From IMG/VR virus record IMGVR_UViG_2537561935_000009: a stretch of DNA of 6,238 nt. One strand, written 5' to 3'. Made by a program: the position numbers and the translations under genes. Positions 1-6,238 of this stretch are shown here, piece after piece. The notes beneath the pieces are model-generated. The model saw only the letters and a list, made by a program, of their open reading frames with translations. It searched no databases and was not told the DNA's origin. Every line of letters begins with the position of its first letter. The first letter of the stretch is position 1. This DNA is from a virus. Its lineage: Duplodnaviria > Heunggongvirae > Uroviricota > Caudoviricetes.

Positions 1-1
1 T

Positions 2-178
2 GACAGCGCCGATCTCCTGTTTACGCTCCCTCTGCGGGAACGCGTTCGCATCACGCGCAGCAGTCAGGGCACGCCGCAGGCAGAACACCTGCCGGAGCCA
101 GAACCCCGCCTGCCATCTTCCGAAGGCGACTGGTCGCATGTATTCCAGGATGTGACGTGGGGTGAAAGCGATGGATAA
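2..178 (+). CDS. C-terminal fragment of a putative tail completion protein (P2 gpR-like); 5' end lies upstream of the window
   Basis: Frame 2 is open from the window edge to TAA at 176..178. Its translation (…DLLFTLPLRERVRITRSSQGTPQAEHLPEPEPRLPSSEGDWSHVFQDVTWGESDG) looks more protein-like than the other two forward frames, which are Cys/Arg-rich. Assignment to gpR rests only on position immediately upstream of the S-like gene in P2 gene order. Confidence 0.35.
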   Translation, partial: DSADLLFTLPLRERVRITRSSQGTPQAEHLPEPEPRLPSSEGDWSHVFQDVTWGESDG

Positions 179-806
179 GGCATTCACCCGCGTGGATGAA
201 ACCTTTGAGGCCATCCGCGACAGCCTGAATCAGCAGGCCATCAATAACATCGCCAGAAAGCTGGCACAGGATTTACGCCGCGCCCAGCAGGCGCGTATCC
301 GGTCACAGAAAGCGCCGGACGGGACCGCGTGGACACCACGCAGACGCCGCGTAACCCGGATACAGGAACGCATTCGCTTTATCTGGAATAACGAAGCACG
401 CACGCTGAAAAACTGGCATCACGACACGGGGAAATACGGGCGAACCATTACCGGGTGGGATGAGGATAAAAACAATATCCGCACGTTTTACCGGGATGAC
501 ATCGACCGTTTTCTGGAAATACGCACCAGGCGCATCAACCAGGACAGCACAAAGCGCGTCCCCATGTTCGTAAAACTGCGCACCGCCCGCTACCTGAAAG
601 CCCGTGCAGATGCTTCCGGTGTGACGGTGGGTTACAGCGGCGTGGCCGCACGTATTGCCCGCGTTCATCAGTTCGGTGAGCGCGATCAGGTTGCGCCGGG
701 CATTTTCACCGATTACCCGGTACGTGAGCTGCTGGGCATCAGTCAGGCAGATGAGCGCCTGATTTATAACACGGTGCTGGGCCGGATTGCGGAGGCTGTA
801 CGGTGA
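171..806 (+). CDS. Phage virion morphogenesis / tail completion protein (P2 gpS-like)
   Basis: ORF in the same orientation as the baseplate operon, ending TGA 804..806. I prefer ATG 171 (GGGG/GTGA purine-rich stretch about 8 nt upstream) over the ORF-track GTG at 162; either is possible. The C-terminal half (…PMFVKLRTARYLKARADASGVTVGYSGVAARIARVHQFGERD…) resembles the virion morphogenesis (gpS / Mu G) family as I recall it. Lies directly upstream of V as in P2. Confidence 0.7.
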   Translation: MDKAFTRVDETFEAIRDSLNQQAINNIARKLAQDLRRAQQARIRSQKAPDGTAWTPRRRRVTRIQERIRFIWNNEARTLKNWHHDTGKYGRTITGWDEDKNNIRTFYRDDIDRFLEIRTRRINQDSTKRVPMFVKLRTARYLKARADASGVTVGYSGVAARIARVHQFGERDQVAPGIFTDYPVRELLGISQADERLIYNTVLGRIAEAVR

Positions 807-1384
807 GCGCAGAACTCATGCGACTGCTGAGCAACATCATCCGCACCGGGATCATCTCTGAAGTTGATGAGAAGTCCTGGCGCGTGCGCGTTCGCAGCGG
901 CGAACTGGAAACAGGCTGGTTGCGCTGGAACACCACGCGCGCGGGAGCCTTCAATGTGTGGCTGCCGCCATCACCAGGCGAACAGGTGGTAATTGCCTGC
1001 ATTGGCGGCAACCCGGAAACCGCCATGATAATTGGCAGTCTGTGGAGTGATGCCAGTCCGGCCCCCGGCAAAAGCCTGAAAGAAATCGTGGTCAGCGCGC
1101 CGGATGGCGCGGTGTTCCGCTACGACGCAGACGCAGGCGCACTGAGCGCCAGCGGCATGAAAACAGCCACCCTGCAGGCATCCGTCAGCGTGACACTGGA
1201 CACGCCCGTCGTGGAATGCACAGACCTTCTGAGAACGGCGACGCTTGACGTCACAAAAGGGGGAAAGATGAGCGGCAATATCACGCACAGCGGCGGCAAT
1301 TTCACCTCAAACGGCATCACAGTGCATACGCATAAGCACGGTGGCGTTAAAGGTGGCAGCGATTCGACAGGAGGCCCGCAGTGA
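803..1384 (+). CDS. Baseplate assembly protein V (central spike, P2 gpV-like)
   Basis: 193-aa ORF with GTG start at 803 preceded by GGAGG at 791..795; the start overlaps the upstream stop (GTGA). The translation has the gpV-like pattern: IRTGII near the N-terminus, GEQV…GG core, and C-terminal …GG.M.GNI.HSGG…SNG…HTHKH…GG. Position between S and W matches P2. Confidence 0.9.
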   Translation: MSAELMRLLSNIIRTGIISEVDEKSWRVRVRSGELETGWLRWNTTRAGAFNVWLPPSPGEQVVIACIGGNPETAMIIGSLWSDASPAPGKSLKEIVVSAPDGAVFRYDADAGALSASGMKTATLQASVSVTLDTPVVECTDLLRTATLDVTKGGKMSGNITHSGGNFTSNGITVHTHKHGGVKGGSDSTGGPQ

Positions 1385-1731
1385 CAACCCGCTACACAGG
1401 AATGAACCCGGACGGGACGGGAAACCTGAACGATATGGAGCACCTGAAACAGTCAGTCAGGGATATCCTGACCACCCCGCTGGCAAGCCGGGTTATGCGA
1501 CGGGAATATGGCAGCCTTTTGCCTGATTTGATTGACGAACCCATGAATAACACCACGCGTCTGCAATGCATGAGTGCTGCCGTGATTGCACTGACACGAT
1601 GGGAACCCCGCATTGCCCTGGACGCCATCGACGTTGTCTGGAAGGCAGGAGGCCGCGCCGGGGTGACGCTGTCGGGCACTGTCATGCAGACCATGCAGAA
1701 TGTTGAATTAACCATCACGCTGAGGGAGTAA
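1381..1731 (+). CDS. Baseplate assembly protein W (GPW/gp25 family, P2 gpW-like)
   Basis: 116-aa ORF, GTG start at 1381 overlapping the V stop (GTGA), with AGGAGG at 1369..1374. N-terminus MTTRYTGMN… and internal …RVMRREYGSLLPDLIDEP…WEPRI… match my recollection of gpW/gp25-type baseplate wedge proteins. The size is about that of P2 gpW. Confidence 0.9.
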   Translation: MTTRYTGMNPDGTGNLNDMEHLKQSVRDILTTPLASRVMRREYGSLLPDLIDEPMNNTTRLQCMSAAVIALTRWEPRIALDAIDVVWKAGGRAGVTLSGTVMQTMQNVELTITLRE

Positions 1732-1734
1732 ATC

Positions 1735-2631
1735 ATGCCCGCCGTTGACCTTTCCCAGTTACCGGAACCCGCCATCATCGCGGAGCCTGACTTTGAAGCA
1801 ATTCTGGCTGACACAAAAGCCATGATGATTGCGTCCTATCCCGCCGAACAGCGTGAAGCCGTTTCCGCCGCGCTGGAGCTGGAATCGGAACCCCTTAACG
1901 TTATCGCCCAGACAACAGCGTTTCGTGAAATGCTGTTACGCCAGCGGGTCAATGAGGGTGCACGCGCCTGCATGTTAAGCCACAGCGCCGGGACAGACCT
2001 GGACAACCTCGCGGGCAATATGAACACAAAGCGCCTGGTTATCACTCCGGCAGCGGATACCACCGACGCGGTGATGGAGAGCGACACCTCGCTGAGACTG
2101 CGGGCGCAGCGGGCGTACGACGGCTTGAGTGTTGCTGGCCCGTCAGGTGCATACGAGTATTTTGCCCGCAGCGCCAGCGGTCTGGTGCGTGATGCGCGGG
2201 CTATCAGTCCGTCTCCGGCCAATGTGACGGTTTCCATCCTGTCCACTGAAGGCGACGGCACAGCAACGGAGGCGTTGCTTAATACCGTTCGCGCCGTTCT
2301 GAATGCAGAGGATACCCGCCCGGTGGCCGACCGCCTGACCGTACAGAGCGCCAGAATCGTGACATGGCGGCTGAATGCAAAACTGTACTTTTACCCCGGC
2401 CCGGAATCCGAACCTATTCTGGCCGCGGCTGAATCGTCGTTCAGGAAGTGGCTGGCTGAGCAGGGGCTTATCGGTCAGGACGTGGCGTTGTCCGCCATTG
2501 CTGCCGCACTTCATGTGCACGGCGTGCAACGCGTGGAGATAATCGAACCCACACAGAATATGGCCATCAGCGACATACAGGCGGCGCGCTGTGAGTCATT
2601 TACCATCAGCGAAGGTGGGCGCAATGAGTAA
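1735..2631 (+). CDS. Baseplate assembly protein J (P2 gpJ-like)
   Basis: 298-aa ORF, ATG at 1735 with GAGGGAG at 1723..1728. Size and position (after W, before I) match P2 gpJ; the sequence is typical of Baseplate_J family proteins as recalled. Confidence 0.9.
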   Translation: MPAVDLSQLPEPAIIAEPDFEAILADTKAMMIASYPAEQREAVSAALELESEPLNVIAQTTAFREMLLRQRVNEGARACMLSHSAGTDLDNLAGNMNTKRLVITPAADTTDAVMESDTSLRLRAQRAYDGLSVAGPSGAYEYFARSASGLVRDARAISPSPANVTVSILSTEGDGTATEALLNTVRAVLNAEDTRPVADRLTVQSARIVTWRLNAKLYFYPGPESEPILAAAESSFRKWLAEQGLIGQDVALSAIAAALHVHGVQRVEIIEPTQNMAISDIQAARCESFTISEGGRNE

Positions 2632-3154
2632 TTCACTGTTACCGCCATCAGCCAGCAGTTTCATGCGTTGTGCCGAAGCCGTCGGAACACGCATTACAGA
2701 CATTCCGGTAGACCTCAATACGCTGTGGTCGCCGGATACCTGCCCGGTGCATCTGCTGCCTTATCTCGCCTGGGCATTTTCCGTTGACCGCTGGGATCGC
2801 AACTGGCCGGAAGAGACAAAGCGACAGGTTATTCGTGATGCATGGCTGATACACCGACACAAAGGGACCATCAGCGCACTGCGCAGGGCCATTGAACCAC
2901 TGGGATACCTCATTCGCGTGTCTGAGTGGTGGGAGTTCGGAGGAGAACCGGGAACATTTACCGTTGAAGTCGGCACGCTGGACAGTGGCGTGACGGAGGA
3001 AATGTATCTGGAAATGGAGCGGTTGATTGCTGATGCCCGCCCGGTCAGCCGCCACATGACAGGGCTGAATATCATTCAGGAGATCCCGGGGGATATTTTC
3101 GCGGCGGCAGCAACTTACGACGGTGAAGTCATTACCATTTATCCGGACGATTAA
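2624..3154 (+). CDS. Tail protein I (baseplate, P2 gpI-like)
   Basis: I prefer ATG 2624 (GGTGGG at 2614..2619; 176 aa) over the ORF-track GTG at 2591. This start overlaps the J stop by 8 nt (ATGAGTAA). Motifs …LWSPDTCPVHLLPYLAWAFSVDRWDRNW… match my recollection of P2 gpI. Immediately precedes the tail fibre gene. Confidence 0.87.
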   Translation: MSNSLLPPSASSFMRCAEAVGTRITDIPVDLNTLWSPDTCPVHLLPYLAWAFSVDRWDRNWPEETKRQVIRDAWLIHRHKGTISALRRAIEPLGYLIRVSEWWEFGGEPGTFTVEVGTLDSGVTEEMYLEMERLIADARPVSRHMTGLNIIQEIPGDIFAAAATYDGEVITIYPDD

Positions 3155-3156
3155 GC

Positions 3157-5259
3157 ATGAGTACCACAACACGAAAATTTAAAACCGTTATCACCGATAC
3201 GGGTGCAAAAAAATTAGCTCAGGCAGCCGCGCCAGATGGTAAGCCTGTCCGCCTGACTCATATGGCCGTGGGCGACGGTGGCGGCACGTTGCCCACACCA
3301 GACAGTAAGCAGACCCGTCTGGTGCATGAGGTGTGGCGACACACTGTTAATCGCGTCATCCTGGACGCAACACATCAGAACCACATTATTGCGGAGCTGG
3401 TTATTCCTCCTGAAACGGGCGGATTCTGGATCCGGGAAATTGGTGTATTTGATGAGCACGGCGATTTGATCGCGGTGGGCAATACTGCGGAAAGTTACAA
3501 GCCAGCCGTTGCCGAAGGATCCGGACGTGCACAAACATTTCGCACCATTCTGACCGTATCCAGCACTGCCACCGTGGCGCTTACCGTGGATAACACCATG
3601 GTGATGGCCACAGTGGATTACGTGAATGACAAACTGAAAGAACATGAACAGTCACGACGTCACCCGGACGCCTCGCTGACCGCAAAAGGCTTTGTTCAAC
3701 TCAGTAGCGCCACTAACAGCACGTCTGAAACGCAGGCTGCAACGCCGAAAGCAGTAAAAGCCGCGTATGACCTGGCTAACGCAAAATATACCGCTCAGGA
3801 CGCCACGACGGCACGAAAAGGGATAGTCCAGCTCAGTAGTGCCACCAACAGCACGTCTGAAACGCTGGCCGCGACACCGAAAGCGGTTAAGGTGGTAATG
3901 GATGAAACGAACAAGAAAGCGCCCTTAAACAGCCCGGCGCTGACCGGAACGCCAACAACACCAACTGCGCGACAGGGAACGAATAATACCCAAATCGCAA
4001 GCACGGCTTATGTGATGGCCGCGATTGCCGCACTTGTAGATTCGTCACCTGACGCACTGAACACGCTGAACGAGCTGGCGGCGGCGCTGGGCAACGACCC
4101 GAATTTTGCGACCACCATGACTAACGCGCTTGCGGGTAAGCAACCGAAAGATGCCACCCTGACGGCGCTGGCCGGGCTTGCTACTGCAGCAGACAGGTTT
4201 CCGTATTTTACGGGGAATGATGTTGCCAGCCTGGCAACCCTGACAAAAGTCGGGCGGGATATTCTTGCAAAATCGACCATTGCCGCCGTTATCGAATACC
4301 TCGGTTTACAGGAAACGGTAAATCAGGCTTCTGGAGCATTACAAAAAAACCAGAACGGCGCAGATATTCCGGGAAAAGATACCTTCACCAAAAATATTGG
4401 GGCCTGCCGCGCATATAGCGCATGGCTGAATATTGGTGGCGATAGTCAGGCCTGGACAACCGCACAATTCATTTCGTGGCTGGAGAGTCAGGGGGCATTT
4501 AACCATCCTTACTGGATGTGCAAAGGCTCATGGGCTTATGCAAATAATAAGGTCATTACAGATACAGGTTGCGGAAATATTTGTCTTGCAGGTGCTGTGG
4601 TGGAAGTTATTGGCACTCGCGGCGCAATGACCATACGCGTTACCACGCCGAGCACGTCCAGCGGCGGCGGAATTACTAACGCTCAATTCACCTATATTAA
4701 TCATGGTGATGCTTATGCTCCTGGCTGGCGACGAGACTACAACACGAAAAACCAGCAGCCTGCATTTGCTTTAGGGCAGACAGGAAGCAGGGTTGCAAAT
4801 GATAAAGCTGTTGGCTGGAACTGGAATAGCGGTGTTTATGATGCAGATATTGGTGGCGCAACAGCATTAATCCTCCACTTCAATATGAATACGGGGAGTT
4901 GCCCTGCCGTACAGTTCCGCGTGAATTACAGGAATGGCGGTATTTTTTATCGTTCAGCGCGTGATGGTTATGGATTTGAGGCTAACTGGTCAGAGTTTTA
5001 CACCACGACCCGCAAACCCTCTGCGGGAGATGTTGGTGCATACACGCAGGCAGAATGTAACTCAAGGTTTATTACAGGTATTCGCCTTGGCGGTCTGTCA
5101 TCTGTTCAGACATGGAATGGTCCCGGCTGGTCTGACAGGTCAGGTTATGTCGTTACGGGTTCAGTTAACGGAAACCGTGATGAATTAATTGATACAACTC
5201 AGGCAAGGCCAATTCAGTATTGCATTAATGGGACGTGGTATAACGCGGGGAGTATTTAA
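3157..5259 (+). CDS. Tail fibre protein (P2 gpH-like), with a conserved N-terminal baseplate-attachment/shaft region (about aa 1-382) and a compositionally distinct C-terminal receptor-binding region (about aa 383-700)
   Basis: 700-aa ORF starting 2 nt after the I stop. The N-terminus (MSTTTRKFKTVITDTGAKKLAQAA…VRLTHMAVGDGGG) and two copies of the phage tail fibre repeat (…QLSSATNSTSET.AATPKAVK…) are gpH-like. The C-terminal third is AT-richer and Trp/Gly/Cys/Asn-rich, as expected for a swapped receptor-binding module. Confidence 0.92.
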   Translation: MSTTTRKFKTVITDTGAKKLAQAAAPDGKPVRLTHMAVGDGGGTLPTPDSKQTRLVHEVWRHTVNRVILDATHQNHIIAELVIPPETGGFWIREIGVFDEHGDLIAVGNTAESYKPAVAEGSGRAQTFRTILTVSSTATVALTVDNTMVMATVDYVNDKLKEHEQSRRHPDASLTAKGFVQLSSATNSTSETQAATPKAVKAAYDLANAKYTAQDATTARKGIVQLSSATNSTSETLAATPKAVKVVMDETNKKAPLNSPALTGTPTTPTARQGTNNTQIASTAYVMAAIAALVDSSPDALNTLNELAAALGNDPNFATTMTNALAGKQPKDATLTALAGLATAADRFPYFTGNDVASLATLTKVGRDILAKSTIAAVIEYLGLQETVNQASGALQKNQNGADIPGKDTFTKNIGACRAYSAWLNIGGDSQAWTTAQFISWLESQGAFNHPYWMCKGSWAYANNKVITDTGCGNICLAGAVVEVIGTRGAMTIRVTTPSTSSGGGITNAQFTYINHGDAYAPGWRRDYNTKNQQPAFALGQTGSRVANDKAVGWNWNSGVYDADIGGATALILHFNMNTGSCPAVQFRVNYRNGGIFYRSARDGYGFEANWSEFYTTTRKPSAGDVGAYTQAECNSRFITGIRLGGLSSVQTWNGPGWSDRSGYVVTGSVNGNRDELIDTTQARPIQYCINGTWYNAGSI
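3685..3903 (+). repeat. Two tandem copies of a ~27-aa phage tail fibre repeat within H (unit 1 at 3685..3771, unit 2 at 3817..3903; period 132 nt)
   Basis: Direct comparison of the H translation: KGFVQLSSATNSTSETQAATPKAVKAAYD versus KGIVQLSSATNSTSETLAATPKAVKVVMD, with clearly related nucleotide sequence. Confidence 0.85.
4289..4314. other. Putative crossover site for a Gin/Hin/Cin/Pin-family serine DNA invertase (gix/hix-like 26-bp imperfect dyad) inside the tail fibre gene
   Basis: Sequence TTATCGAATACC-TC-GGTTTACAGGAA: two 12-bp half-sites (TTATCGAATACC and, reverse-complemented, TTCCTGTAAACC) around a central dinucleotide. The right half is identical to the gix/hix-type half-site as I recall it. 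It lies within codons V378-E386 of H, exactly at the compositional break between the constant and variable parts. Confidence 0.6.
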
Positions 5260-5261
5260 TT

Positions 5262-5795
5262 ATGATGCACTTAAAAAACATTACTGCTGGCAACCCTAAA
5301 ACAAAAGAGCAATACCAGCTAACAAAGCAATTTAACATCAAATGGCTTTATTCAGATGATGGAAAAAACTGGTATGAGGAACAAAAGAATTTCCAGCCAG
5401 ACACTTTGAAAATGGTCTATGACCATAACGGCGTTATTATTTGTATTGAAAAGGATGTTTCAGCAATTAATCCGGAAGGCGCAAGCGTCGTTGAATTACC
5501 TGATATTACAGCAAATCGCCGTGCTGACATTTCGGGTAAATGGATGTTCAAAGATGGCGTAGTGGTAAAGCGAACTTATACCGAGGAAGAGCAGAGGCAG
5601 CTGGCGGAAAATGAAAAGCAAAGCCTGCTACAGCTCGTCAGGGATAAAACCCAGCTATGGGACTCACAGCTACGGCTGGGCATCATTTCCGACGAGAATA
5701 AACAAAAATTAACCGAGTGGATGCTCTATGCGCAGAAAGTCGAATCTACAGACACTTCCGGTCTGCCAGTAACGTTTCCCGAACAACCAGAATGA
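5262..5795 (+). CDS. tfa: Tail fibre assembly protein (Tfa; P2 gpG / Mu U family chaperone)
   Basis: 177-aa ORF starting 2 nt after the H stop, with GGGGAG about 10 nt upstream. Conserved Tfa-type central block …[24 protein letters not shown]… and C-terminal …PVTFPEQPE; size matches P2 gpG. Confidence 0.9.
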   Translation: MMHLKNITAGNPKTKEQYQLTKQFNIKWLYSDDGKNWYEEQKNFQPDTLKMVYDHNGVIICIEKDVSAINPEGASVVELPDITANRRADISGKWMFKDGVVVKRTYTEEEQRQLAENEKQSLLQLVRDKTQLWDSQLRLGIISDENKQKLTEWMLYAQKVESTDTSGLPVTFPEQPE

Positions 5796-5798
5796 GAG

Positions 5799-5825
5799 AA
5801 GGCCCGCTATCGGGCCTTAATTTTT
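5799..5825. terminator. Intrinsic terminator hairpin between the convergent tfa genes
   Basis: AAGGCCCG (5799..5806) / loop CTAT / CGGGCCTT (5811..5818), an 8-bp GC-rich stem, followed by TTTTT at 5821..5825. It sits in the 28-bp gap between the + tfa stop (5793..5795) and the minus tfa stop (5824..5826). The U-tract is good only for the + transcript. Confidence 0.55.
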
Positions 5826-6238
5826 ACTCTGGTTTTTGTGGCCATTCAGGATTTGCCGTATCCACACGGCTGACCAGAACACTGTAGCGTTCCCATGCTT
5901 CCAGTCGGCTGTGGTCCTCATCCGTTGCCATATTCAGCCTTACTGCACGCTCTAGTAGTTGAATGACTGATTCAGCATCAGCAAGAAGTCTGGCTTTCTG
6001 ATTTTCTACCTGCTGCTGTAATTCCTCTTCCGTATAAATACGTTTAATAACTGCGCCATCCTTAAACATCCAGTTACCAGAAATGTCGGCACGTCGGTTA
6101 GCAGTAATATCCGGCACTTCAACAACACTTAATCCATCCGGTCTGATAGCTGTTACATCCTTTTCCACATAGCGGATGATGTTATCTTTGTCATACGCTA
6201 ATTTTATCGTGTCATCCTGGAAGTTCTTTTGTTCCTCA
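5824..6238 (-). CDS. Second, divergent tail fibre assembly protein (Tfa-prime), convergent with tfa; N-terminus lies beyond the window end
   Basis: The minus-strand reading frame is open from the window edge (6238) to TAA at 5824..5826. Translating by hand upstream of the ORF-track GTG at 6166..6168 gives …[61 protein letters not shown]…, which aligns with residues ~39-100 of the + strand Tfa (…[61 protein letters not shown]…). The true start is therefore upstream of the window; the 114-aa ORF-track call is a truncation. Confidence 0.85.

Follow-up and report, generated by a model that had tools for sequence, protein, structure and literature searches.

The invertible G segment of Mu, the C segment of P1, and the horizontal movement of tail-fibre genes between P2, Mu, and P1 have been documented since the 1980s and 1990s. 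A GC step at an invertible tail-fibre cassette is already known biology and a textbook case, and the stretch analyzed here (6,238 nucleotides, hereafter the window) adds one further example of known tail-fibre cassette exchange. G segment biology has been described together with the G(-) host range, which includes E. coli C, Citrobacter freundii, Shigella sonnei, Enterobacter cloacae, and Erwinia (PMC4406740). We find that the H tip and the chaperone in the window are, with a probability of roughly 0.88, half of a host-range switch that works by inversion, of the Mu G / P1 C type, in a P88-like prophage. This locus sets which bacteria the phage can adsorb to, and we infer the receptor specificity of the H tip. 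Specifically, the orientation in the window predicts a Mu G(-)-like fibre, i.e. expression of the G(-)-type fibre S' and chaperone U'.

The window is one entire contig of 6.2 kb, and its genes are those of the late tail operon in a P2-like prophage of the P88 type. Its left part holds the following features:

162..3154, plus strand: GC-rich backbone block of P2-like (Xuanwuvirus/P88-type) tail/baseplate genes
162-806, plus strand: tail completion S-like gene (Pfam Phage_tail_S)
803-1384, plus strand: baseplate spike V (Pfam Phage_base_V)
1381-1731, plus strand: W (Pfam GPW_gp25)
1735-2631, plus strand: J (Pfam Baseplate_J)
2624-3154, plus strand: I (Pfam Tail_P2_I)
3157..4288, plus strand: H constant N-terminal part (aa 1-377), baseplate-attachment domain and fibre-repeat shaft
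3666..3890, plus strand: two fibre repeats with 132-bp spacing in the shaft (direct repeat family D1)

The gene order S-V-W-J-I-H-G, the Pfam families, and the high DNA identity are those of a P2-like (Peduoviridae, Xuanwuvirus) late operon. The backbone block (GC 58.5%, GC3 0.58-0.69) is 96-97% identical in nucleotides to P88, Shae_phiSM, and P884B11. The constant part of H (GC 54.9%, GC3 0.557) contains PF12571 at aa 6-153 plus PF03406 repeats, and P88-like phages share 95-99% of its nucleotides, P2 H 77-85%; differences in alignment length reveal one additional 132-bp fibre repeat in P88 and in E. coli 4600 (L009). For bases 1-4288, all matches are to Xuanwuvirus/P88-like phages (96-97%), apart from P2-type matches confined to the H shaft (about 84%). 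No DNA similarity to Mu was found in the window left of 4268, and P1 similarity to the left part is limited to the fibre-repeat region (65-72%).

To the right of the H shaft lie a crossover site, the tip, and its chaperone:

4289..4314, plus strand: 26-bp gix/cix-type crossover site, TTATCGAATACC-TC-GGTTTACAGGAA, with central dinucleotide at 4301-4302
4315..5259, plus strand: H variable C-terminal receptor-binding part (aa 387-700), Mu S' / P1 S' (G(-)/C(-)) type
5262..5795, plus strand: tail-fibre assembly chaperone (tfa), Mu U' / P1 U' type (PF02413 Caudo_TAP, E = 1e-35)

Tip and chaperone are both near-identical to Mu S'v and U'. H aa 370-700 are 94.9% identical to Mu S'v (331 aa), and the variable part is 89-97% identical in nucleotides to D108, Mu, P7, and P1 and matches PDB 8JU3 ('Tail fiber protein S,S'') with E = 2e-216. 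The tfa gene, which starts 3 nt past the H stop codon, encodes a protein 96.0% identical to Mu U' (177 aa) and 94.9% identical to P1 U', compared with only 57-58% for U-type chaperones; its match to PDB 5YVQ_B (Mu U) has E = 9e-63. The NCBIfam search returned no family for H or tfa, while PF02413 (gathering cut-off 22.1 bits) scores 122.9 and 119.6 bits for the two chaperones of the window. Full-length matches to 4315-5795, at 89-97%, occur in Mu, D108, SfMu, P1, P7, D6, RCS47, and Yersinia Mu-like phages, where the matched features are annotated as S'v and U' of the invertible G/C segment, with the U'-type tfa co-linear with S'v in every match. Separate BLASTN searches of the two halves thus give different relatives on either side of the site, Xuanwuvirus/P88-like phages on the left and Mu/P1/P7/D108-type phages on the right, in agreement with the earlier proposal that a receptor-binding tip and its cognate chaperone have been exchanged among unrelated phages.

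The crossover site lies in frame within H (encoding ..VIEYLGLQE..), with imperfect inverted half-sites around the central dinucleotide, and it is at once the left boundary of the invertible segment, the composition break, and the homology break. For annotation, the H gene is to be split into constant and variable parts at 4289-4314. The site is 23/26 identical to Mu gix (TTATCCAAAACCTCGGTTTACAGGAA) and identical to the left arm of P88. The homologous site is one arm of an inverted-repeat pair around 2.7-3.1 kb in P88, Shae_phiSM, Mu, and E. coli O103:H2; in P88 the inverted sites are at 23822-23886 and 26862-26926, and the second site is likewise present in the other three. An inverted-repeat search (seed 12) did not recover flanking inverted sites in E. 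coli 4600. Left of the site the window tracks the left arm of P88, and right of it the interior of the P88/Mu right arm.

Comparison with relatives shows the segment in both orientations. Positions 1-4327 are co-linear with P88, while 4285-6129 correspond to P88 26926-25082 on the opposite strand (93%). Among complete E. coli genomes, 106 carry the window-type H-constant/S'v junction (a 421-bp junction probe being covered to 80% or more, with identity up to 99.5%) vs 358 with the P88-type junction, and in 222 co-linearity extends over 80% or more of the window. An invertase is annotated right after the segment in P88, Shae_phiSM, and E. coli O103:H2, 4600, and 720632. That of E. coli 4600 is 82% identical to Mu Gin, and NCBIfam serine-recombinase matches for the invertase of a relative were sub-threshold only. 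E. coli 720632, the closest junction match, was set aside as a model given the IS600 in its tfa and its different alternative cassette. The window itself holds the expressed tip and chaperone followed by an inverted second chaperone, and the contig ends at 6238 inside the segment, before the expected second site, alternative tip, and invertase, with one orientation seen. We infer that inversion is active in this genome.

These findings recast the horizontally acquired module that the sequence-only reading had placed at 4315-5795. Exchange is upheld; a simple insertion is not, the module being instead the expressed half of a Gin/Cin-type invertible segment. Its left edge falls on the crossover site as proposed, and its right edge has to be moved, as the shared DNA reaches about 5890. 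In P88 and in the 106 complete E. coli genomes, the right half is as close to the window as the left half is. As such, because the nearest left-half relatives also hold the right half, the module was acquired before this lineage arose and not by this contig alone.

The lineage-specific constant part of H (3157-4288) is fused in frame at the 26-bp site to an exchangeable tip (4315-5259), with the folding chaperone of this tip (5262-5795) next in line. In the mechanism we propose, all of the DNA right of the site would be part of an invertible segment of about 3 kb that belongs to the Mu G / P1 C family. The segment would be flipped by a Gin/Cin/Pin-type serine invertase, encoded just past it in every complete relative and presumably outside the contig here, through strand exchange between two inverted sites at their central dinucleotides. 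The flip would join the constant part of H to the alternative tip, then to the alternative chaperone (now inverted at 5824-6238). The cassette would move in one piece between contractile-tail phages of unrelated lineages (P2-like, Mu-like, and P1-like), and the step in GC and codon usage would arise because it circulates in this way, keeping its own composition of about 46% GC vs 54-58% for the backbone.

The best surviving alternative, although an improbable one, is that the joint is fixed and non-invertible, i.e. that the site is a conserved coding joint as in P2, left static by an earlier homologous recombination in a genome that has lost its invertase or never had one. P2 H carries TTATCGAATATCTCGGTTTACAGGAA, 25/26 identical to the window site, and shows the same GC step with neither invertase nor inverted partner, so the site by itself is no proof of invertibility. 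The window, too, contains a single site and no invertase, and the IS600 in the tfa of a relative as close as E. coli 720632 indicates that such loci decay. By contrast, an inverted second chaperone directly follows the first in the window, an arrangement that P2 lacks and that, among the records examined, occurs only in invertible segments with inverted repeats and an invertase. Moreover, every examined P88-like relative with the cassette has the invertase, and both orientations occur.

The GC drop near 4300 is real. GC content falls from 57.6% (1-4258) to 45.8% (4259-6238), with the maximum-likelihood single change point after base 4258 (LLR 38.0, compared with a top LLR of 9.4 in 300 shuffles of 30-nt blocks), and 60-nt blocks on either side of the site differ in GC (Mann-Whitney P = 1.7e-10). 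The 2-lnL support interval of this change point, 4173-4318, includes the 26-bp site at 4289-4314, which agrees with the sequence-only reading that the break coincides with a crossover site near 4300. The "sharp" break of that reading holds at a resolution of about +/-100 nt only: the 200-nt flanks of the site have 57.0% and 49.0% GC, a local step of 7-8 points. Its hand counts were exact on recount for 1801-1860 (53.3%), 4321-4380 (43.3%), 4501-4560 (40.0%), and 5281-5340 (36.7%), while the 62% given for 2101-2160 becomes 65.0%. Because its right-hand sample blocks lie below the regional mean, the step is about 11-12 points and the 15-20 points they imply are too large, although the drop itself stands. 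Recursive segmentation within each half found no further significant GC change point (LLR <= 5.5), the sub-significant ones being at 2536 on the left (LLR 3.8) and on the right (LLR 2.8-5.5). As a side observation, GC3 hints at a weak ladder of 0.67, 0.56, and 0.43.

A step is also found in GC3 and in synonymous codon usage, as a sliding analysis of GC and codon usage had been expected to reveal. GC3 is 0.634 on the left vs 0.438 on the right (change point 4179, LLR 30), going from 0.56-0.69 in the left genes to 0.43-0.45 in the right genes, and a comparison of synonymous codons in the left and right genes gives a chi-square of 139 (permutations: mean 41.6 +/- 8.7, maximum 72). The interval 4315-5795 has 46.1% GC overall, with 48.1% in the H variable part (GC3 0.43) and 42.7% in tfa. 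The steps in GC, GC3, and codon usage coincide with the homology break vs relatives, as is expected of foreign DNA.

Lower GC could also have arisen with no transfer at all, through the amino-acid composition or functional constraint of tips and chaperones, a reading we consider very unlikely. The GC2 of tfa is very low (0.315), owing to the abundance of K, E, N, D, and I in its product, and P2 drops equally with a different tip, so low GC is common to this class of tip and chaperone genes. However, the drop is at synonymous positions (GC3), and GC2 is equal in the variable and constant parts of H (0.53 and 0.51). Among synonymous codons, the difference between left and right far exceeds that in permutations, and DNA 95-97% identical to the cassette sits in phages that otherwise have no DNA similarity to the window. 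The codon tests, GC3, and this cross-lineage identity contradict amino-acid composition as the cause of the drop.

The sequence-only reading had further proposed an AT-richer donor. The cassette is indeed AT-richer than the backbone, but such a donor is not demonstrable, as the cassette is equally atypical in Mu and P88. The G segment has 45.2% GC in Mu vs 52.7% for the remainder, and the invertible segment of P88 45.2% vs 53.6% for the remainder. Only P1-type genomes agree with the cassette in GC (C segment 46.6% vs 47.1% for the genome); in P2, with its different tip, GC steps from 56.2% to 43.7% at the equivalent joint. The P1 values are suggestive of a P1-like compositional home of the cassette, and composition gives no direction of transfer.

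The right end of the window holds two more features:

5799..5818, no strand: palindromic GC-rich hairpin, likely a bidirectional terminator, AAGGCCCG-CTAT-CGGGCCTT, then a T run
5824..6238, minus strand: second chaperone gene (U type) of the alternative cassette (PF02413, E = 1e-34), cut by the contig end

The hairpin lies between the convergent chaperone genes, with T/A runs on its flanks, and in the D108 record a terminator is annotated in the homologous stretch. The inverted tfa at the contig end, a 137-codon open frame running off the window, is to be annotated as a silent alternative cassette, not as a pseudogene; its product is 75-79% identical to Mu U, P1 U, and tfa2 of E. coli 4600. 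Homology to the shared cassette does not stop at 5795 but runs into the 3' end of this gene as far as about 5890, and a mosaic joint lies inside it at about 5880-5900. Specifically, 5824-5900 is 90-100% identical to P88/Mu/P1, and 5900-6238 is 60-86% identical to these and 99.7-100% identical to P1-like phage-plasmids. A second chaperone of the P1-plasmid type was not found within a P88-like prophage of any complete genome: 6/6 near-identical matches are P1-like elements, one of them integrated in the APEC17 chromosome, and the joint at 5890 is therefore unconfirmed. Since the last 340 nt are closer to a P1-like plasmid than to P88-like prophages, the contig may be mis-joined at its right end. 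The contig break was probably caused by the repeat-rich, possibly heterogeneous segment. Speculatively, the chaperone switch at 5890 may record a very recent cassette trade between a P1-like phage-plasmid and a P2-like prophage, with the segment serving as an exchange port between co-resident elements; we hold this to be doubtful, and such a trade would run through shared short conserved stretches or through intermolecular action of cross-reactive Gin/Cin/Pin at common crossover sites.

An assembly artefact that joined a P88-like prophage and a Mu-/P1-like element of one strain at a shared 26-43-bp repeat is most improbable, even for a whole short draft-assembly contig that ends in a repeat-rich segment and matches P1-like phage-plasmids at 99.7% in its last 340 nt, as the identical H-constant/S'v junction in 106 complete E. 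coli genomes excludes a chimera at 4300 and 222 genomes are co-linear with >=80% of the window, an exclusion that does not extend to the 5890 joint.

Among known systems, the Mu G segment (S/U, S'/U', and Gin; including D108 and SfMu) resembles the invertible cassette of the window in S'v/U' (95-96% protein and 92-97% DNA identity), in layout (constant part, site, Sv, tfa, and inverted tfa), and in being AT-richer than its carrier genome. It differs in that the backbone and constant part of the window are P2-like, with no DNA similarity to Mu, in that this constant part is much longer (377 aa vs 509 nt, about 170 aa, in Mu), and in the second chaperone, which has 75% aa identity to Mu U. The P1/P7 C segment (Cin/cix) has the same inverted two-cassette layout and 89-95% DNA identity in S'v-U', and P1-like phage-plasmids carry a second chaperone gene 99.7% identical to that of the window. 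By contrast, the first 400 nt of P1 S'v are only 50-80% identical, the P1 backbone is unrelated, and P1 cix (TTATCCAATACCTTGGTTTAAGAGAA) is homologous to the window site but diverges more than gix.

The P88/Xuanwuvirus group (P884B11, Citrobacter phage Shae_phiSM, and the E. coli O103:H2 12009 prophage) is 96-97% identical in nucleotides over 1-4327 and shares the cassette (93-97%), the site, the gene order, and the downstream invertase. The P88 record differs in having the segment in the opposite orientation and a shaft one 132-bp repeat longer, Shae_phiSM matches S'v only from 4800 on, and the identity of every member to the window is only 60-86% over 5900-6238, the 5' two-thirds of the second chaperone gene. 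Finally, the non-invertible H/G genes of P2 belong to the same V-W-J-I-H-G operon, with an H shaft 77-85% identical through the 26-bp sequence and a GC step at the same joint, but with neither inverted second cassette nor invertase; because the P2 tip after the joint is S-type and not S'-type, its homology to the window stops at 4322.

The window is the complete contig AQCL01000165.1 of assembly GCA_000354615.2 and carries the following features, from left to right:

+ strand, P2 S-like tail completion gene
+ strand, V, W, J, and I
3157–5259, + strand, tail-fibre gene H (700 aa)
5262–5795, + strand, tail-fibre assembly chaperone, tfa (177 aa)
5799–5818, GC-rich palindromic hairpin, perfect over 8 bp (AAGGCCCG CTAT CGGGCCTT), T/A runs on both flanks
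5824–6238, − strand, second chaperone gene, running off the contig end

GC content drops within H. Using a 300-nt sliding window, it is 55–62% as far as ~4300, 47–50% at 4300–5100, reaches a trough of 38–40% at 5100–5600, and is 44–49% thereafter. A likelihood change-point scan places the best single break after base 4258 (left 57.6% GC, right 45.8%; LLR 38.0, against a maximum of 9.4 in 300 shuffles of 30-nt blocks), and its 2-lnL support interval (4173–4318) spans the crossover site at 4289–4314. The break extends to synonymous positions. From gene to gene, GC3 runs from 0.66–0.69 (baseplate genes) through 0.58 (I) to 0.557 and 0.43 (H, constant and variable parts, respectively), followed by 0.45 (tfa) and 0.40 (second tfa), with GC2 alike in both H parts (0.51 and 0.53). 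Synonymous codon usage also differs between left and right genes (chi-square 139 vs 41.6 ± 8.7 in 1,000 within-amino-acid permutations). Leucine, for instance, is encoded by CTG 73 times out of 110 in the left genes, compared with 7 out of 25 in the right genes. The break near 4300 proposed by the sequence-only reading is thus confirmed by the scan, GC3, and codon usage. The five 60-nt hand counts behind it were right to within three points on recount, but they exaggerated the drop, because the three right-hand blocks fall below the regional mean of 46.1%; the real step is ~11–12 points overall, and 7–8 points within 200–400 nt either side of the site.

A further decrease in GC3, from ~0.67 to ~0.56, is seen at I and the start of H (2600–3160), and the relatives PhiR44_2 and 500465-2 match the window only over bases 1–3067/3089. 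These observations suggest a further module joint between I and H, although the GC change point there is non-significant (LLR 3.8).

The two sides of the main break match different lineages. Bases 1–4288 are 96–97% identical over their full length to Xuanwuvirus, i.e. P2-like phages including P88, P884B11, Citrobacter phage Shae_phiSM, and several E. coli prophage records, and similarity to P2-type phages is confined to the H shaft (~84%). By contrast, 4315–5795 matches the annotated S'v (variable tip) and U' (chaperone) of the invertible G or C segment in Mu-like (D108 96.6%, Mu 94.9%, SfMu 93.5%, and Yersinia vB_YpM_39 96.7%) and P1-like phages (P7 and RCS47 95.3%, D6 91.5%, and P1 89.3%). 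In a 100-nt identity profile, Mu has no alignable DNA left of 4268 and P1 reaches 65–72% on the left in the fibre-repeat region only, while both show 85–100% across most of 4300–5900. At the protein level, Mu S'v is 94.9% identical to H residues 370–700, and the 177-aa chaperone shares 96.0% identity with Mu U' and 94.9% with P1 U', compared with just 57–58% with U-type chaperones and P2 G. The solved structure of the Mu tail fibre S/S' (8JU3) matches the H tip (E = 2e-216), and that of Mu U (5YVQ chain B) the chaperone (E = 9e-63). The expectation of separate relatives for each half thus holds, except that P88 is common to both (96.5% over 4315–5795). Given that P88-like relatives carry both halves at equal identity, acquisition of the cassette predates the lineage of the window.

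Two fibre repeats (3666–3890; Pfam Phage_fiber_2), spaced by 132 bp, are 78% identical. P88 and E. coli 4600 carry one extra copy of this shaft repeat, making the shaft variable in length in steps of a whole repeat. P1 has a 132-bp "repeated element a1" annotated in its own fibre gene.

The crossover site at 4289–4314 has the sequence TTATCGAATACCTCGGTTTACAGGAA; that of Mu gix is TTATCCAAAACCTCGGTTTACAGGAA. The homologue of the window's site in P88, Shae_phiSM, Mu, and an E. coli O103:H2 prophage belongs to a pair of inverted repeats flanking 2.7–3.1 kb, and a DNA invertase gene directly follows this segment; the E. coli 4600 invertase is 82% identical to Mu Gin. An eight-way alignment of site regions reveals a clean switch: up to the site, the window tracks the P88 and O103:H2 left arms, and beyond it the interior side of the P88 and Mu right arms, while the P88 left arm continues as the Mu left arm does. 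Window 1–4327 is co-linear with P88, and 4285–6129 corresponds to P88 26926–25082 on the opposite strand. Because of this switch of partner and strand at the site, where the compositional break also falls as had been claimed, the window is the flipped isomer of what is seen in P88. Both forms occur naturally: among complete E. coli genomes, junction-spanning probes find the window-type junction in 106 and the P88-type in 358. An assembly chimera at 4300 is excluded by those 106 genomes. The closest junction match (99.5%) is in E. coli 720632 (locus L006, NZ_CP025842.1 1326522–1328322), where IS600 lies within the U'-type chaperone gene and the alternative cassette is shorter and different; this locus is an example of the decay of an invertible switch.

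The cassette is equally foreign in Mu (45.2% GC vs 52.7% in the rest of the genome), P88 (45.2% vs 53.6%), and the window, and is compositionally at home only in P1 (46.6% vs 47.1%). An AT-richer compositional home of the P1 kind is plausible, although composition can prove neither this nor the suggested AT-richer donor. P2 has an S-type tip without invertase or inverted cassette, and carries a 25/26-identical copy of the 26-bp site sequence inside H (13857–13882 of the P2 record, L010), across which GC falls from 56.2% to 43.7% and GC3 from 0.594 to 0.397. As the same step accompanies a near-identical sequence without an invertase, the joint is a splice point shared across the family, where AT-richer tips meet a GC-richer shaft. 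The site sequence also serves as a conserved coding joint (..VIEYLGLQE..).

The hairpin at 5799–5818 sits in the 28-bp gap separating the convergent chaperone genes, at a position equivalent to an annotated terminator in the D108 record, and is likely a bidirectional terminator within the invertible segment. The chaperone genes also form a long, diverged 243-nt inverted repeat within the segment (5375–5617 vs 5996–6238; 71% complementarity), separate from the crossover sites. High identity to P88, Mu, and P1 persists past the hairpin and into the second chaperone gene's 3' end, as far as ~5880–5900, beyond which identity to these phages and to E. coli prophages matching the rest of the window falls to 60–86%. 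The 5' two-thirds of this gene (5882–6238) is 99.7–100% identical to the chaperone gene of 93–100-kb P1-like phage-plasmids (e.g. E. coli ETEC1720 plasmid unnamed5) and 99.7% to a P1-like element integrated into the chromosome of APEC17; in these elements, S'v/U' is only ~80% identical to the window. The joint at ~5890 reflects either another recent mosaic event or a mis-join at the draft contig end, and no complete genome with the window's combination across it was found. The 6238-bp contig is reported from 3 samples and ends inside the invertible segment, which may reflect an assembly break caused by the repetition of tfa sequence or by mixed orientations.

A 1992 paper reportedly concerned the horizontal exchange of tail-fibre genes between P2, Mu, and P1. 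The compositional break near 4300 is a correct and well explained observation, and represents no departure from known biology. In the P88 paper, the fibre is described as a homologue of P2 H, and the word "invert" is absent throughout (PMC5285337). Gin-mediated recombination between the flanking inverted repeats flips the Mu G segment, such that the constant 5' part of S is joined to Sv then U, or to S'v then U', and E. coli K-12 is infected by G(+) particles (PMC4406740). Given that the tip and chaperone are near-identical to Mu S'v/U', the captured orientation is predicted to equip a P2-like tail with a fibre of G(−) type; the activity of the switch in the source genome and the receptor specificity of the fibre are inferred. 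The right-hand site, second tip, and invertase are seen only in relatives, and are beyond the contig end here. The locus functions like the Mu G / P1 C family of invertible tail-fibre segments and, by the features testable in the window, is a member of it, on a Xuanwuvirus backbone.
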